Source: a virus (lineage: Duplodnaviria; Caudoviricetes). From it: a DNA stretch of 64,000 bases. The stretch is taken from positions 112,505 through 176,504 of the IMG/VR virus record IMGVR_UViG_3300049198_000021. One strand, written 5' to 3'. Position numbers and translations under genes: made by a program. This document shows, piece after piece, positions 58,698 through 64,000 of this stretch (position 1 is the stretch's first letter; every line of letters begins with the position of its first letter). Under the pieces are notes generated by a model. The model was not told the DNA's origin. It saw only the letters and a list, made by a program, of their open reading frames with translations, and did not search any database.

Positions 58698-59535
58698 ACG
58701 CCAGCCTGATGGCGATAGTGTGGGGCAACTCACATAAAGGGGGTAAGGTCACATAACCCCGCCCGAAAGGGTCAATTCAGGCAAGTGCAGTCAGGTCCGC
58801 GAGGATCGCTTCTGGTAACAGGAGATAGACTGGAATGGGGCAGGGGCGCGTGAAGCGCACAGGGAGGGGCCGACGGTGCCTCCTAACGCCGGAGTAGAAC
58901 CCGGAGCCTGTATCTAACCCAAACCAACTCGATGATAAAGCACAAGGTCACGGGTTCGAGGCTTAGCGGCTGAGGGCGGTGGTCAATCTTGCAGGGTTCA
59001 CGTCCTGTCTGATGGTCTTGGTAGCTCTTAGCGGAGTGACGGATATGAGGCGACTAGCATTCCTTCGGCGGAAACGTCATGGGAACTAGGTGATAGCTCG
59101 TCTCGGTGGCTTGCACAATCTAGCTCAGTGGTAGAGCATCGGACGCTTAATCCGACGGTCGAAGGTTCAATCCCTTTGGTTGTTATCAAACGCAAAGATT
59201 GTCACGACTGCATGTGAAAGACGCCTAATGCCGTAGGGTTTACCCAATGCGGCCCGACCTGATCTCGCAAGGTGATGGTTGGTTGGTGGAAGAAGTTTCG
59301 TTGGGCCCGCAAGCCCTTAATGGCTGGAGACAGTCAGCGGAATCGAAACTGCCGAATATCATGCAGTGTCGTCGCTAATGCCAGCGACCCCGTGAGAACC
59401 GGGAAAAATAGGCGGCGTTGATCTGGGACCAGACTACCGCAAGGGGTTTGGTGGATAAGCCGGGAAAGTGACTCGCAAGGTCACCATAATCTGTGCGAAC
59501 GACGGATCGTGAAAGGCGTAGTCTCAGCCTGACAT
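58698..59535 (+). ncRNA. GOLLD-like giant structured RNA (about 840 nt) with embedded tRNA
   Basis: ORF-free; many GNRA-capped hairpins (GAAA, GCAA, GTAA, GCGA); internal tRNA; 3' end AAAGGCGTAGTCTCAGCC resembles my recollection of the GOLLD 3' domain; next to phage tRNA cluster; promoter TTGACA at 58663. Boundaries approximate. Confidence 0.65.
59114..59185 (+). tRNA. tRNA-Lys(CTT)-like, embedded in the GOLLD-like RNA
   Basis: TAGCTCAGTGGTAGAGC D arm, TCGGA-CGCTTAA-TCCGA anticodon arm (G33), GGTTCAATCC T arm; no encoded CCA. Confidence 0.7.
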
Positions 59536-59622
59536 ACATTGACTGGGGTGGTATGTAGCTCTTCGGAGTGAGGACCGGGATACCCCGCAGGCAACACCTG
59601 CCAATGTTTTTTTTTTTCGATT

Positions 59623-59792
59623 TCTATATTGGCCCAGCAAAGAAGGTTAGCTACCTTCTCCTCGGTGCCCGCAGGTCACACGATCCCAGCAATACTCGAA
59701 TGCAGACGGATCGTTCAAGCGCCAAAGCCCAGTAAGTCGAGCCGTGGCTTGTCGCATTGGGAGTCGCTGCAAACCCGCTGGGTCATTATAGA
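59623..59792 (+). ncRNA. Unassigned structured RNA A
   Basis: Closing stem TCTATATTGGCCCAGC/GCTGGGTCATTATAGA plus internal helices. Confidence 0.5.
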
Positions 59793-59810
59793 CATCGATT
59801 AGTTTTGGTT

Positions 59811-59952
59811 GGGATCACCCCGAGAAGGATACGGCCCCTAGGAGCCCTTCCTTATTTCGGTCAGGGTGTTTAGGTGATGGAATTGTTTGCGAGCCGGGTT
59901 GATCACCGAGTAGCTTTCCGTTTCAGGGGTTCGATTCCCCTCCTGATCTCCA
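59811..59952 (+). ncRNA. tRNA-like RNA B (T arm and CCA, expanded core)
   Basis: GGGATCA/TGATCTC closing stem, AGGGG-TTCGATT-CCCCT T arm, ends CCA; no recognisable D or anticodon arm. Confidence 0.5.
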
Positions 59953-59955
59953 GCT

Positions 59956-60091
59956 TCACTCGTAATGAAGCTTCTCAGCGGAATGTCGGCGGTCACGCGA
60001 CCTAACCGGCGATCCGTGTGTTTACACTGAACAGGCAGAAGGAAGGGCGTAGTGACCCCGGCCGAGCTTCGAGAGGCCCCATTACGAGTGA
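59956..60091 (+). ncRNA. Unassigned structured RNA C
   Basis: Perfect 12-bp closing stem TCACTCGTAATG/CATTACGAGTGA. Confidence 0.5.
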
Positions 60092-60093
60092 TC

Positions 60094-60209
60094 CATTTGT
60101 GATCGGGCTGGCGGCACCAGATAGGTATATGAAGCCGAGGTCGTCAGGCCCGGATAAAAACCGTGTATGGGTGTTGCTAGTGCTTTGGCCGCCGGCCTGA
60201 TCACAGATG
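60094..60209 (+). ncRNA. Unassigned structured RNA D
   Basis: 22-bp contiguous closing stem with three G-U pairs. Confidence 0.55.
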
Positions 60210-60211
60210 CT

Positions 60212-60343
60212 TCACTTGCAACAAGGACGACGGCTACGTTCTGATTATAGATGGTGGAGCCTTCACGGGCTAGGAAGCCATCAGCGATTGATCAGGATGG
60301 TGCTACCGGTGCTTTAAGTCGCCGTCTTCCTTGTTGCGAGTGA
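60212..60343 (+). ncRNA. Unassigned rod-like RNA E
   Basis: 16-bp closing stem, then GACGGC/GCCGTC, TCTGATT/GATCAGG, GATGGT/GCCATC and AGCC/GGCT helices separated by internal loops. Confidence 0.55.
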
Positions 60344-60435
60344 TGTTCGAATTGTTAGCGCCGCTCTGTCCGCAGGGCTGACCCGGCAGGTAACCAAGGG
60401 TCGTTCGAATATCCTCGCATTAAGTTCCTTCGGGA

Positions 60436-60650
60436 ACGCCGATTTATCAGCCGCGAAAGCTCAAGGGACACCTTGGGGGAGTTCGCTCAGTGGCTTTCAC
60501 CATGCACTTAACCGGGGTTGTGCCCGGAGCGGTGCTAGATTGAGAGCCGGGAGTGGGACAAGTAACGGACCAACTGATCCATACCCTACCGCCGGGCGCT
60601 TCTAATTCGGTGAGAATGGTGCGAAATGTAGTGGTTCGCACAATCGGTGT
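60436..60650 (+). ncRNA. Unassigned structured RNA F
   Basis: ACGCCGATT/AATCGGTGT closing stem followed by a T run; several internal hairpins. Confidence 0.4.
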
Positions 60651-60660
60651 AATTTTTTAG

Positions 60661-60689
60661 TTGACATTCGAATCGGATGTCGTTACACT
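60661..60689 (+). promoter_or_regulatory. Sigma70-like promoter of tRNA operon 1
   Basis: TTGACA-N17-TACACT. Confidence 0.85.
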
Positions 60690-60741
60690 TCGAGCTTCAA
60701 GACCGGGACGCCCCGGCTCACAAGGATTTTAGAGTTCCATC

Positions 60742-60834
60742 ATGTTCAACGTAGTCGCCATGAATAACCCAGCAGCACCGGCCATTATGGTCCCGGTCGT
60801 TGTGGCGTGCGTTGATGGAGGAACGAAGGTCTAA
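60742..60834 (+). CDS. Attenuator leader peptide 1 (MFNVVAMNNPAAPAIMVPVVVACVDGGTKV)
   Basis: 30-codon ORF between promoter and terminator; codons 3-22 are all N/V/A/M/P/I, the isotypes of the downstream tRNAs. Confidence 0.8.
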   Translation: MFNVVAMNNPAAPAIMVPVVVACVDGGTKV

Positions 60835-60864
60835 GACCTCCTCAGTATCAAGCAAGTCATTCCG

Positions 60865-60901
60865 ATCGGGGGCCATGGAAACATGGCCCCCGATTTCGTT
60901 T
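60865..60901 (+). terminator. Attenuator terminator 1
   Basis: Perfect 13-bp stem ATCGGGGGCCATG-GAAA-CATGGCCCCCGAT with a TTTCGTTT tract, ending 1 nt before tRNA-Pro. Confidence 0.85.
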
Positions 60902-60977
60902 CTAGGTGTGGGAAAGTTGGTAATCCGCCTGATTTGGGATCAGGAGACCGTAGGTTCGAACCCTACCACTTAGACCA
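60902..60977 (+). tRNA. tRNA-Pro(TGG)
   Basis: Cloverleaf, CCTGA-TTTGGGA-TCAGG, CCA. Confidence 0.92.
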
Positions 60978-60983
60978 GTTAAT

Positions 60984-61062
60984 CAGGCGGTAGGGGAGTC
61001 TGGCCGTCCCTACCTCCCTCGGACGGAGGGGATCGCAGGTTCGAATCCTGCCCGCCTGACCA
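60984..61062 (+). tRNA. tRNA-Pro(CGG)
   Basis: CCTCC-CTCGGAC-GGAGG, GGTTCGAATCC, CCA. Confidence 0.92.
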
Positions 61063-61068
61063 AGTTAT

Positions 61069-61139
61069 AGCAGAGCCTCAGTGGGGGCGGGGCCTCATAA
61101 GCCTTTGACCCGGTGGCGCACATCCACCCTTTGCTACCA
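61069..61139 (+). tRNA. Atypical tRNA-Met(CAT)
   Basis: AGCAGAG/CTTTGCT acceptor, CTCATAA loop, CCA; reduced D arm; T loop CGCACAT. Confidence 0.65.
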
Positions 61140-61277
61140 GATAGGTGACCCAGCCACCTCCTCGTCGATCGCCGAGATCGTCAGGTGCCCCGCACGATCA
61201 GCGGAGCTAGTAAAACCACTGGGACGTTTCGAACCGTCTCGTTGAGACGCGTCTAAGCCGGAGTAATTAACCGGCGT

Positions 61278-61388
61278 ATGCGGGGCGGTTGTAGAACGAG
61301 GAGGACGCCGGTTCGAATCCGGCCACCGGGGCAAGGCTCCGGTGTAGCTCAGGTGGTTAGAGCGCCTTGTTGGTTTCGTCCCCGGCAT
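61278..61388 (+). ncRNA. YrlA-type Y RNA-like circularly permuted tRNA mimic
   Basis: Order is T arm (GCCGG-TTCGAAT-CCGGC), loop-closed acceptor stem (CACCGGGGC-AAG-GCTCCGGTG), D arm (TAGCTCAGGTGGTTAGAGC); anticodon stem AACGAGG/CCTTGTT continues into a terminal stem. Confidence 0.75.
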
Positions 61389-61417
61389 CCGTCAAATCGG
61401 ATGGGACAAGAGTTTGT

Positions 61418-61493
61418 TGGTGATTAGCTCATTCAGGAGAGCGCTGGTGTCACATACCAGAGGCGGCAGGGGCAGAGCCTGCATCACCAACCA
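61418..61493 (+). tRNA. tRNA-Val(CAC)
   Basis: CTGGT-GTCACAT-ACCAG, CCA; T loop GGCAGAG. Confidence 0.8.
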
Positions 61494-61494
61494 T

Positions 61495-61572
61495 CCACGG
61501 ATAGCTCAGTTGGTAGAGCGGCCGACCGATAATCGGCGTCTTGCGGTGGTTCGAGCCCACCTCTGTGGACCA
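61495..61572 (+). tRNA. tRNA-Ile(GAT)
   Basis: GCCGA-CCGATAA-TCGGC (C33), CCA. Confidence 0.85.
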
Positions 61573-61622
61573 GTTTGAATAGGCTGTAACAGCCGAAACT
61601 CAGGGGTTAGTCTCCCTGTAAG

Positions 61623-61711
61623 AGTGAGACCAATAGACCGAACATTCGGCCGGCGGATGAGTTGACGACTCGCACTCCCGGCGCGATCAGTAGGTTGAGG
61701 TCTCGCTACCA
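61623..61711 (+). ncRNA. CCA-ended tRNA-like RNA, unassigned
   Basis: AGTGAGACC/GGTCTCGCT stem followed by ACCA, internal hairpins, no canonical T loop. Confidence 0.4.
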
Positions 61712-61717
61712 GTTTAT

Positions 61718-61792
61718 TTCGTAGTAGCTCAATGGTGGAGCAGCCCGCTGTTAACGGGAAGGTTGTAGGTTCGAGCCCTACCTACGGAGCCA
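61718..61792 (+). tRNA. tRNA-Asn(GTT)
   Basis: CTGTTAA loop, G73, CCA. Confidence 0.92.
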
Positions 61793-61806
61793 GATAGGAG
61801 AAGTGA

Positions 61807-62115
61807 GTGGAACGCTACAACATCAGCTACGACAGCCCCGGACGGAAACTCCGGGAGACTGATCCGGGACCGTCTGACACCACATGGAAAGGTGTCCGGG
61901 AACATTGGTCGAAGTCGTATGATGGGCAGTTCCTCTCGGATTATGAAGAAGGCGTTCAGCTTGCTATCGCTGATCTGGAAGCTGGTGGTCGAGAGAATCG
62001 CGATGCGCTTCTGGCGGTCGAAGCAACCCAACGCAATCACAGTTGGAATGCTCAGAAGGACGGTTACCTCGATACGATCGGCGAGGGAAAATATATCGGT
62101 CAACTTAATTTCTGA
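61807..62115 (+). CDS. Hypothetical protein inside tRNA operon 1
   Basis: AGGAG RBS, GTG start, 102 aa. Confidence 0.6.
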   Translation: MERYNISYDSPGRKLRETDPGPSDTTWKGVREHWSKSYDGQFLSDYEEGVQLAIADLEAGGRENRDALLAVEATQRNHSWNAQKDGYLDTIGEGKYIGQLNF

Positions 62116-62118
62116 TTT

Positions 62119-62190
62119 GATCCTGTAGCTCAATGGTAGAGCCAGCCCCTCATAAGGGCCGGGTTATAGGTTCAAGTCCTATCAGGATTA
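62119..62190 (+). tRNA. tRNA-Met or Ile2 (CAT)
   Basis: CTCATAA loop; C4-G69/C5-G68 is compatible with a TilS substrate; CCA not encoded. Confidence 0.85.
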
Positions 62191-62191
62191 C

Positions 62192-62267
62192 GCTTCGTTA
62201 GCTCAGTTAGGAGAGCGCTGCTGTGACATGGCAGAGGCCGTAGGGGCAGGACCTACACGAAGCACCA
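62192..62267 (+). tRNA. tRNA-Val(GAC)
   Basis: CTGCT-GTGACAT-GGCAG, CCA; T loop GGCAGGA. Confidence 0.8.
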
Positions 62268-62277
62268 TTTACCCAGT

Positions 62278-62354
62278 GGGGACGCATGTTCTAAGGGTAG
62301 CGAGGACCCCTTGCAAGGCTCCTGATGTCGGTTCGATTCCGACCGTCTCCACCA
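62278..62354 (+). tRNA. tRNA-Ala(TGC)
   Basis: GGGGACG/CGTCTCC with G3-U70, A73, loop CTTGCAA, CCA. Confidence 0.85.
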
Positions 62355-62382
62355 ACTATTTTCGCTGTCTGTGATTTTTTGT

Positions 62383-62411
62383 TTGACATCACAAACCGAA
62401 TCACATATAGT
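62383..62411 (+). promoter_or_regulatory. Sigma70-like promoter of tRNA operon 2
   Basis: TTGACA-N17-TATAGT. Confidence 0.85.
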
Positions 62412-62466
62412 TCGGCTTCAACAACGGGACACGGTGTCCCACAAACAGGATTTTAGAGTGAACGCT

Positions 62467-62529
62467 ATGACCACCCGGTTCGGAAAACGAGATCGCCGAG
62501 AAGGCGATGAACGAGGTTTTACCTCGTAA
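62467..62529 (+). CDS. Attenuator leader peptide 2 (MTTRFGKRDRREGDERGFTS)
   Basis: 20-codon ORF (in-frame GTG at 62458 also possible); codons 4-18 are all R/F/G/K/D/E; same AGGATTTTAGAG upstream element as leader 1. Confidence 0.8.
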   Translation: MTTRFGKRDRREGDERGFTS

Positions 62530-62565
62530 CCCGGTAGTGCGTGTTGCTGCCGGTGTTGTCCTGAC

Positions 62566-62642
62566 GGACCGGTAGCTCAGTAGGTTAGAGCAGGGGATTC
62601 TTAATCCCAAGGTCGAGAGTTCAAATCTCTCCCGGTCATCCA
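62566..62642 (+). tRNA. tRNA-Lys(CTT) inside attenuator 2
   Basis: TTCTTAA loop, GAGAG-TTCAAAT-CTCTC; G1-A72 mismatch and U73; CCA. Confidence 0.8.
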
Positions 62643-62659
62643 AGACAACATCGGTTTTC

Positions 62660-62698
62660 AAAACGCCCTACCGGTCGCCCGGTGGGGCGTTTTCGTTT
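62660..62698 (+). terminator. Attenuator terminator 2
   Basis: AAAACGCCCTACCGG-TCGC-CCGGTGGGGCGTTTT followed by CGTTT. Confidence 0.85.
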
Positions 62699-62726
62699 GC
62701 CCTTTCTCGGCCGGCTCCCTTGGAAT

Positions 62727-62802
62727 GGACCGGTAGCTCAGTAGGCAGAGCGCGGGACTTTTAATCTTGAGGTCGTGGGTTCGAACCCCACTCGGTCTAC
62801 CA
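62727..62802 (+). tRNA. tRNA-Lys(TTT)
   Basis: CTTTTAA loop, CCA. Confidence 0.92.
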
Positions 62803-62828
62803 AGGAGTTCAATAGGTTACGACTAGAT

Positions 62829-62903
62829 GCGGGTGTAGCTCAGTGGTAGAGCACCTGCTTGCCAAGTAGAAGGTCGCGGGTTCGATCCCCGCTACCCGCT
62901 CCA
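62829..62903 (+). tRNA. tRNA-Gly(GCC)
   Basis: GCGGGTG acceptor, TTGCCAA loop, U73, CCA. Confidence 0.93.
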
Positions 62904-62931
62904 GTCGAAGTTGTTAGTGATGAGTGATGAT

Positions 62932-63006
62932 GCGTCCGTAGCCAAGCGGAAAGGCAGTGGGTTTCCACCCCGCGATGCGCGAGTTCGATCCTCGCCGGAC
63001 GCTCCA
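62932..63006 (+). tRNA. tRNA-Gly(TCC)
   Basis: TTTCCAC loop, U73, CCA. Confidence 0.92.
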
Positions 63007-63018
63007 TCACTTATCATT

Positions 63019-63093
63019 GGCCGTGAAGCCCAACGGTTGGGCAGCGGATTGTCTATCCGAAGGTTGCGGGTTCGAATCCCGTCACGGTCGCCA
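63019..63093 (+). tRNA. tRNA-Asp(GTC)
   Basis: TTGTCTA loop, G73, CCA. Confidence 0.9.
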
Positions 63094-63096
63094 GTT

Positions 63097-63206
63097 TGCA
63101 GTATCGTCTAATCCCCGACAACGGGGACAGAGTGTCATGACCTCTGGGACTAGGATAGCCGGGCGAAGAACCGGAGGATGTCGGTTCGATCCCGGCTGCT
63201 GCGCCA
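63097..63206 (+). ncRNA. tRNA-like RNA with two extra hairpins in the D loop
   Basis: TGCAGTA/TGCTGCG stem, canonical T arm, CCA; inserted TCCCCG/CGGGGA and CAGAG/CTCTG hairpins; 8-nt loop GCGAAGAA. Confidence 0.6.
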
Positions 63207-63213
63207 AGTTTAT

Positions 63214-63292
63214 ACCGTCGTCGCGGAAGTGACACGCCCGATTGATCGATCGGCCCGGCAGGGTGTGGGTGAAAGACCCACCGACGGTTCCA
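63214..63292 (+). ncRNA. tRNA-like RNA of undetermined isotype
   Basis: ACCGTCG/CGACGGT followed by TCCA, short variable arm, T loop TGAAAGA, 6-nt anticodon loop TGATCG. Confidence 0.55.
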
Positions 63293-63299
63293 AATTCAC

Positions 63300-63373
63300 G
63301 GCCCCATCCTCTATGGGTAAGAGGCCGCCTTCTCATGGCGGTAAACCGGGTTCGAGCCCCGGTGGGGCTACCA
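63300..63373 (+). tRNA. tRNA-Glu(CTC)
   Basis: CCGCC-TTCTCAT-GGCGG, CCA. Confidence 0.9.
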
Positions 63374-63387
63374 AGTTTGCGAATTAA

Positions 63388-63463
63388 GGTCTGGAAGATC
63401 AACTGGAAGATCAACTGATTACGAATCAGAAGGGTGTGGGTTCGAATCCCACGCAGACCACCA
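63388..63463 (+). tRNA. tRNA-Arg(ACG)
   Basis: TTACGAA loop, CCA. Confidence 0.88.
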
Positions 63464-63470
63464 AGTTAAT

Positions 63471-63544
63471 GGCCCCATCCTCTATGGGTAAGAGTCCGCC
63501 CTTTCAAGGCGAGAAACCGGGTTCGAGCCCCGGTGGGGTCACCA
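63471..63544 (+). tRNA. tRNA-Glu(TTC)
   Basis: CTTTCAA loop, CCA; paralog of 63300. Confidence 0.9.
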
Positions 63545-63556
63545 GAATATATCAGT

Positions 63557-63632
63557 GCCGCTTTAGCTCAACTGGATAGAGCGCGGGCGTCCGAAGCCCA
63601 AGACTGGGGTTCGAGTCCCTGAGGCGGCACCA
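63557..63632 (+). tRNA. tRNA-Arg(CCG)
   Basis: GTCCGAA loop, CCA. Confidence 0.9.
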
Positions 63633-63633
63633 C

Positions 63634-63708
63634 GGATAGGTAGCTCAGTGGTAGAGCGCCGGCTTGAAACCCCGGAAGTCGAAGGTTCAATTCCTTCTCT
63701 ATCCACCA
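63634..63708 (+). tRNA. tRNA-Phe(GAA)
   Basis: TTGAAAC loop, CCA. Confidence 0.9.
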
Positions 63709-63714
63709 TACTCT

Positions 63715-63784
63715 GCCCCCGCCGAGGTGGGCCATGAGCCTTCTAAGCTCTAGGGCGTCGGTTCGATTCCGGCCGGGGGCTCCA
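63715..63784 (+). tRNA. Atypical tRNA-Arg(TCT) with reduced D arm
   Basis: GCCCCCG/CGGGGGC, CTTCTAA loop, canonical T arm, CCA; only 70 nt. Confidence 0.75.
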
Positions 63785-63785
63785 T

Positions 63786-63873
63786 ACTTCCCGAGCGGGA
63801 AGATTTGCTCCCGATCGGGATCAGAACGACCAGAAACTTCCCGATCGGGAAGATATGCTCCCGAGCGGGATCA
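63786..63873. repeat. Four palindromic TCCCGA(G/T)CGGGA boxes in a 50-bp-period direct repeat
   Basis: Boxes start at 63789, 63809, 63839 and 63859. Confidence 0.9.
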
Positions 63874-63903
63874 AAAAAAAAACACCGACATTGAAAATAA
63901 GTG

Positions 63904-63932
63904 TTGACTCCTGTAGGTTCCTTCCATATACT
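63904..63932 (+). promoter_or_regulatory. Sigma70-like promoter of predicted tRNA operon 3
   Basis: TTGACT-N17-TATACT; A-tract and CACCGACATT box upstream. Confidence 0.8.
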
Positions 63933-63939
63933 TCGCAGC

Positions 63940-64000
63940 ATGTTCACACAGACCGCCTTGCAATGCCTTACGGGCACCACGCTATATTGGCATAGCCAGT
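63940..64000 (+). CDS. Predicted leaderless leader peptide 3 (MFTQTALQCLTGTTLYWHSQ..., truncated by window)
   Basis: Only 7 nt separate the -10 box from the ATG; 16 of codons 3-20 are T/Q/L/C/Y/W/H/S. Confidence 0.7.
   Translation, partial: MFTQTALQCLTGTTLYWHSQ

Follow-up and report, generated by a model that had tools for sequence, protein, structure and literature searches.

Results

Organization of the locus

The window, 64,000 nt in length, forms the final part (bases 112505 to 176504) of a 176,504-bp virus contig, rated complete by CheckV; the source is an Erythrobacter-type, Lacusarx-like phage of Sphingomonadales. The final 204 bases of the window (63797 to 64000) are the same as contig bases 1 to 203, save for A10 versus A9 in one homopolymer. 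Since the contig ends overlap, the assembly closes on itself, and the contig start (L006; the window-equivalent position is L006 + 63797) supplies the DNA beyond base 64000. The join is not an artefact, since in relatives with a 98% identical primase the same junction, tRNA-Arg(tct)-promoter-ORF-tRNA-Ser, lies inside uninterrupted contigs. The A10/A9 terminal overlap probably explains why the record is classified as linear, and it may be either a genuine terminal repeat or an overlap left by the assembly of a permuted genome. Across this junction, we found the following features, referred to below as unit 3:

63786..63870, no strand assigned: double palindrome in two tandem copies (CTTCCCGAKCGGGAAG then CTCCCGAKCGGGATC), from sequence
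63870..63903, plus strand: A-rich tract (A10) and AAAATA box upstream of the -35 element, possible UP-like element
63904..63932 (L006 107-135), plus strand: strong sigma-70-type promoter, TTGACT, 17-nt spacer, TATACT (10 of 12 matches)
63940..64000, then L006 204-226, plus strand: putatively leaderless leader ORF of 27 codons, stop codon TAG at L006 224-226
63964..63976, plus strand: hairpin A, within the ORF (codons 9-13), 4-bp stem, UUACG loop
63981..64000, completed by L006 204-208, plus strand: hairpin B (codons 14-22), 11 pairs
L006 226-251: hairpin C, 9 bp, loop CCTGACGC, abutting the leader stop
L006 261-358: tRNA-Ser(cga), called by ARAGORN
L006 370-410: intrinsic terminator, 14 bp (9 GC; stem 370-400) plus TTTTCGTTTC, before the other block-3 tRNAs
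L006 423-514: tRNA-Tyr(GTA)-like gene, non-canonical, identified by eye

The order of the unit is hence ORF, covarying hairpin C, tRNA-Ser(CGA), terminator, and 12 further tRNAs. The double palindrome lies between tRNA-Arg(tct) and the promoter, is GC-rich, and contains CGATCG/GATC; the terminal overlap begins within it, at 63797. It is absent, reduced, or largely missing in relatives. One of the palindromes scores as terminator-like in a minus-strand scan (63786-63870).

Relatives were found by way of the primase encoded beside the tRNA island, which is 90% identical in Erythrobacter phage XM05, 70% in vB_EliS-L02, and 65% in Sphingobium phage Lacusarx; the RtcB ligase gene adjoins the primase gene in relatives. 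The cultured hosts are Erythrobacter sp. JL475 (XM05), Erythrobacter litoralis (vB_EliS-L02), and Sphingobium sp. IP1 (Lacusarx). Six more lineages came from IMG/VR and metagenome contigs, giving ten lineages in all. Where contigs of relatives span the island, the tRNAs are split into the same three blocks, and all ten lineages have unit 3 whole, with promoter, ORF, hairpin C, tRNA-Ser(cga or tga), terminator, and Tyr plus the remaining tRNAs. In Citromicrobium phage RXM (53% primase identity), a tRNA island is missing from this place, and the phage therefore does not provide a further outgroup. A loose gapped pattern scan of viral contigs gave almost only chance matches among the matches listed, and a tighter scan returned only the known relatives.

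Promoter and start of the leader ORF

An earlier note, made from the window alone, had read TTGACT-N17-TATACT with an ATG at the expected +1. Both hexamers (-35 at 63904-63909, -10 at 63927-63932) and the ATG are present as described. Taken alone, promoter matches are not above chance (3 found compared to 1.7 ± 1.1 in shuffled sequence). In the gap-free alignment of the ten lineages, TTGAC, TAT..T, and CATG are invariant, and the 17-nt spacer and the 7 nt between the -10 element and the ATG keep their lengths in every lineage while both intervening sequences vary. We therefore accept the promoter on phylogenetic footprinting over ten lineages, which is decisive where the match score is not. 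The ATG at 63940 follows the -10 element by 7 nt in a C|A context, which would place the 5′ end of the RNA at, or 1 to 2 bases from, the ATG and would make the start leaderless; a Shine-Dalgarno sequence is not found at this ORF. An A-run and an AAAATA-like box recur 5′ of the -35 element in most relatives, and a function as an UP-like element is possible.

Two other reading frames in this region were discarded. A longer ORF starting from GTG 63901 overlaps the promoter and is not conserved, and a minus-strand ORF (63750-63998) overlaps tRNA-Arg on the opposite strand.

The tRNAs beyond the window

The expectation had been that canonical tRNAs for Thr, Gln, Leu, Cys, Tyr, Trp, His, and Ser, none of which were seen in the window, would follow base 64000, together with a stop codon and a terminator. 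Indeed, ARAGORN finds 18 tRNAs in the window, only for Lys, Pro, Ile, Asn, Met, Ala, Gly, Asp, Glu, Arg, and Phe, and confirms that those for the eight amino acids are absent from it. The tRNA search past base 64000 recovered all eight predicted isotypes in block 3, and no other isotype was detected in this block. The array thus exists, although its Tyr(GTA) gene is non-canonical in this phage and was read by eye. The terminator exists as well, but does not directly follow the ORF: a hairpin and tRNA-Ser(CGA) intervene.

After the Tyr-like gene, the block continues with Leu(cag), Leu(gag), Leu(taa), Thr(tgt), His, Gln(ctg), and Gln(ttg) and ends with Thr(ggt), Ser(gct), Ser(gga), Cys, and Trp. 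At its standard threshold, ARAGORN called Ser, Leu, Thr, His, Gln, Gln, Thr, Cys, and Trp; relaxing the threshold added Leu(cag), Ser(gct), and Ser(gga), and Leu(taa) was assigned from an Rfam score of 29.3 bits (gathering cut-off, 29 bits) and reading of the sequence. The Tyr-like gene at L006 423-514 was missed by both ARAGORN and Rfam. It lacks a normal D arm, and CUUCCCCC in it pairs with the GGGGGA of the variable region; the Tyr-like gene of one relative (L145) has matching changes, CUUCCUCC with GGAGG. Five relatives have an ARAGORN call of Tyr(gta) in this position; the call in vB_EliS-L02 passes the standard threshold, and those in the other four pass only the relaxed one. The strong terminator is kept in all ten lineages, and a search for T-boxes gave no Rfam match at E ≤ 0.1 (window 59500-64000 and L006 1-4000).

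An open frame of 111 codons lies between block-3 tRNA genes (L006 1843-2178). Block 3 is followed by a two-piece permuted alphaproteobacterial tmRNA (L006 2849-3280; RF01849, 88.4 bits; RF04321, 82.6 bits), and a tmRNA is annotated at the same place in Lacusarx.

Composition of the leader ORF

The first 61 nt of the leader ORF lie in the window, where the frame is open to base 64000, as had been read before; past this base, it ends at the predicted stop codon after 27 codons instead of continuing into a long protein. Amino-acid sets were defined from the three tRNA blocks, and each leader was compared with each set. Ser, Tyr, Leu, Thr, His, Gln, Cys, and Trp account for 22 of the 26 residues after Met. 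In a ranking of all 918 ATG ORFs of 15 to 45 codons in the six frames of the whole genome, the leader is first for its own set (binomial, 3e-6). The in-set codon fraction is 0.77 to 0.91 in frame 0 across the lineages and 0.24 to 0.54 in the other frames. A near-complete phage tRNA set alone would predict that the missing isotypes lie downstream, and hence the independent evidence is the match between composition and block. This match exceeds a mere complement of the full tRNA set.

The ORF is kept in the ten lineages, down to 65% primase identity, with a length of 22 to 27 codons. All seven indels within it are multiples of three, and 30 of the 34 alternative residues remain in the eight-amino-acid set, compared to a fraction of 0.37 expected from random non-synonymous single-base changes (P about 6e-10). 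The N terminus MFTQT is nearly constant, and positions 8 to 22 vary freely inside the set. Judged from the alignment, selection acts on which tRNAs are used, that is, on composition, and not on the protein sequence. It is hardly credible that the ORF encodes a small protein acting in its own right: its conservation in ten lineages and the nearly constant N terminus would fit such a role, but the free exchange of residues within the set, the variable length, and a selection on composition that coincides with the neighboring tRNA set speak against it.

The match holds at the level of amino acids. In the seven lineages tested, the leader has one or more codons for each anticodon encoded past the terminator (13/13, 13/13, 14/14, 12/12, 9/9, 11/11, and 11/11), a coverage that is weak per lineage (P = 0.2 to 0.5), and the lineages are related. 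Leader codons fit the block anticodons no better than a random synonymous choice (P = 0.44 to 0.92), and therefore codon-exact tuning was dropped in favor of a match at the amino-acid level with coverage of the block. Codons for the Ser tRNA that precedes the terminator are missing from five of the seven unit-3 leaders tested, and by eye TCG is absent from eight of the ten aligned leaders.

Two sister units

The other two blocks are headed by units of similar build:

60661..60900, plus strand: unit 1, promoter, 30-codon leader (60742-60834), and terminator (60864-60900)
62383..62697, plus strand: unit 2, promoter, 20-codon leader (62467-62529), tRNA-Lys(ctt) (62566-62642), and terminator (about 62663-62697)

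In leader 1, 22 of 29 residues belong to the set Pro/Ile/Asn/Met/Val/Ala, which ranks it first among the 918 ORFs, and the unit is kept in five lineages. Leader 2 has 15 of 19 residues in Lys/Gly/Asp/Glu/Arg/Phe, ranks first by fraction and second by binomial score, and belongs to a unit that is kept in seven lineages. When each leader is compared with each block, the diagonal of the matrix reads 22/29, 15/19, and 22/26, and the off-diagonal counts are 0 to 5.

Units 2 and 3 share their layout, with one tRNA before the terminator. The strand after the stop codon of leader 2 (CCGGTAG...) repeats the 5′ strand of tRNA-Lys(ctt). In Lacusarx, this strand and both terminator arms of unit 2 have changed together (by eye; GUGU/ACAC/GUGU versus GCGU/ACGC/GCGU). 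The sole Lys codon of leader 2 is AAA in all seven lineages and never AAG, which is read by the pre-terminator tRNA-Lys(ctt) (by eye). A general rule that the pre-terminator tRNA is never sensed was rejected, as it holds in seven of seven lineages for unit 2 and in only five of seven for unit 3.

Leaders 1 and 3 start with ATGTTCA, and Lacusarx leader 2 starts with ATGTTCAC (Met-Phe). Phe tRNA is found only in block 2, and only leader 3 is putatively leaderless; the common Met-Phe may reflect a shared constraint on the start.

Further elements were noted in and around the island. A GOLLD RNA (RF02032, 156.7 bits; gathering cut-off, 150) lies just upstream of it at window 59047-59530 and contains a tRNA-Lys(ctt)-like gene (59114-59185). 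Block 1 has a YrlA (Y RNA-like) match at 61282-61385 with 37.2 bits, below the gathering cut-off of 69, and an open frame of 102 codons between its tRNA genes (window 61807-62115).

Covarying RNA structures

The stem of hairpin A changes on both sides between lineages (TGCC/GGCA, CTGC/GCAG, and CAGC/GCTG), with only 62% of the cells paired in a fixed alignment register. Pairing amounts to 93.5% with five compensatory pairs for hairpin B, 100% with two for hairpin C, and 94.6% with four for the terminator. The local structure exceeded 500 of 500 shuffles in the percentage paired, in both counts of two-sided changes, and in the covariation score; on further pair types, it was matched by 4 of 500 shuffles, and all shifted registers were beaten. 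The out-of-set Gly and Pro codons of the leader sit in helices, and parts of the ORF are shaped by RNA pairing as well.

We also considered that the region might be a structured 5′ leader of the pre-tRNA, serving processing, stability, or pausing, with the reading frame as a by-product. The three covarying hairpins fill most of the region, some amino-acid changes track the covariation of the stems (for example, codon 9 with codon 12), and the lack of a Shine-Dalgarno sequence also fits. However, the composition bias is specific to one frame, the indels keep that frame, and replacements stay in the set; the ATG is fixed 7 nt from the -10 element in all ten lineages although those 7 nt vary; each of the two sister ORFs shows an equally good match to its own block; and the start ATGTTCA is common with leader 1, as is the ATGTTCAC start with Lacusarx leader 2. 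We regard this explanation as improbable.

The G of the TAG stop codon is the first base of hairpin C. An alternative to this hairpin, hairpin D, is predicted in all ten lineages, with the 3′ arm of hairpin C on one side and the spacer plus nucleotides 1 to 10 of tRNA-Ser on the other. The predicted energies are −12 to −19 kcal/mol for hairpin D and −14 to −18 kcal/mol for hairpin C. The spacer helices of hairpin D differ compensatorily by lineage (UCU/AGA, CAC/GUG, CGG/CCG, and CCG/CGG), and the alternative between the two predicted hairpins is supported. Furthermore, in nine of ten minimum-energy folds the last four to five codons pair with the 5′ strand of tRNA-Ser and extend hairpin C to a rod, a pairing that is only marginally better than in shuffled sequences (P = 0.04 to 0.3).

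The 8-nt loop of hairpin C is invariant while its stems vary. The loop sequence CUGACGC copies the 3′ arm of the terminator and complements its 5′ arm. Consistent with a role as antiterminator, the best duplex of upstream RNA with the 5′ arm of the terminator is formed by the 5′ arm and loop of hairpin C in ten of ten lineages (−16 to −22 kcal/mol), better than in shuffled sequences at P ≤ 0.03 in six of seven lineages. The 7-nt core of this candidate antiterminator pairs in 97% of the cells; it is invariant on both sides, and covariation can therefore not test it. When terminator arms were exchanged between lineages, cognate pairs did no better than others (P = 0.43). With ribosome masks placed at different codons, equilibrium folding gave no consistent switch: the value dropped from 0.90 to 0.36 in XM05 with the ribosome at the stop codon and stayed at 0.25 throughout in this phage.

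Discussion

In sum, a short ORF, a codon match, a terminator, and candidate alternative pairings were found, and thus the parts of an attenuator are present. The ORF likely senses decoding in some way. From its sequence, unit 3 is probably a ribosome-mediated (leader-peptide) transcription attenuator that heads the third tRNA operon. In our model, where the ribosome stands on the ORF, or how long it takes to cross it, would decide between two folds. In the first, hairpin C would form, often extended by the last codons and the first 12 nt of tRNA-Ser; tRNA-Ser would fold, the terminator would form, and transcription would stop after tRNA-Ser. In the second, the 3′ arm of hairpin C would pair with the 5′ strand of tRNA-Ser (hairpin D), and the invariant loop CUGACGC would be freed to pair with the 5′ arm of the terminator, so that RNA polymerase would read on. 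Slow decoding of block-3 codons would then raise read-through, and the tRNA block would be made when those tRNAs are short.

The direction of control is the least secure step of the model. By analogy, slow decoding most likely raises read-through: we prefer shortage-induced read-through because the codon match would otherwise be without purpose and because of the analogy with amino-acid operons. Geometry alone can yield either direction. Kinetic reasoning suggests that an early stall on the ORF lets hairpin C form and favors termination, the opposite of the expected logic.

It is imaginable that the ORF is translated and senses decoding, with an output other than shortage-induced read-through. 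In one variant, efficient translation would open the operon, as a ribosome at the end of the ORF would mask the 5′ arm of hairpin C and thereby lead to hairpin D and the antiterminator; in another, the switch would mainly act on how tRNA-Ser(CGA) folds and is processed. One base is common to the stop codon and hairpin C, and a terminating ribosome must therefore melt the 5′ arm of this hairpin. Furthermore, hairpin D and the rod of the last codons sequester nucleotides 1 to 12 of tRNA-Ser in nearly all lineages, and our folding trials gave no consistent stall-dependent release of the terminator arm. However, a switch coupled to translation needs no codon match, which is the best-supported feature of the unit; a positive feedback on tRNA supply has no evident benefit; and a strong terminator is conserved in ten lineages. 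We therefore consider this output rather unlikely and retain the shortage-responsive attenuator as the preferred reading.

Still more specifically, and only tentatively, the unit may be a transit-time sensor for the whole tRNA block, in which the ORF samples every isoacceptor encoded after the terminator and tRNA-Ser(CGA) acts as a delay line. The frequency with which the polymerase passes the terminator would be set by the total decoding delay along ~26 codons. Under such a mechanism, tRNA-Ser(CGA) would also supply one of the strands of the switch, given that its 5′ acceptor strand is mimicked by the 5′ arm of hairpin C.

Leader-peptide attenuators are known from the amino-acid operons of enterobacteria, with the leaders thrL, those of ilvGMEDA and ilvBN, trpL, hisL, leuL, and pheL. 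Like these, unit 3 has a short ORF near the promoter in which regulatory codons of several amino acids are enriched, followed by an intrinsic terminator before the regulated genes, and predicted alternative pairings beside the ORF. Unlike them, it is phage-borne and putatively leaderless and would regulate tRNAs instead of biosynthetic enzymes; it samples eight amino acids, with every isoacceptor read once or a few times and not in runs; and a tRNA gene lies between the ORF and the terminator and would contribute to the alternative folds. In the pheST operon (phenylalanyl-tRNA synthetase), the pheM leader senses one amino acid and controls a synthetase, and T-box leaders bind uncharged tRNA directly, without a ribosome. 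Unit 3 would resemble both in that a component of the translation apparatus is controlled by the state of its own tRNA pool, but it differs from T-boxes in having no Rfam match to them.

In mycobacteria, leaderless polycysteine short ORFs act as cysteine-responsive attenuators (Canestrari et al., doi 10.1101/834739). As proposed for unit 3, the sensory ORF is located at the 5′ end of the transcript, and codon-specific pausing controls the downstream genes. The mycobacterial ORFs sense one amino acid and unmask a ribosome-binding site for translational control of protein genes, whereas unit 3 has an intrinsic terminator, tRNA genes, and eight amino acids. In the literature, we found no description of leader-peptide control of tRNA genes, and the publications on Lacusarx and vB_EliS-L02 do not mention the leader-tRNA unit. 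Discussions of phage tRNA genes usually turn on codon usage or on evasion of host defenses that cleave tRNAs; to our knowledge, the control of their expression is almost unexplored.

As unit 3 is present in three cultured phages with known hosts, the idea is directly testable. If it holds true, decoding speed would give feedback control of tRNA supply, and classical attenuation, which acts on enzymes and senses one or three amino acids, would come to include tRNAs and eight amino acids. In the more tentative transit-time reading, unit 3 and sister units 1 and 2 would divide all 20 amino acids among them and provide the phage with a demand-driven tRNA supply, for example, when the tRNAs of the host are depleted.
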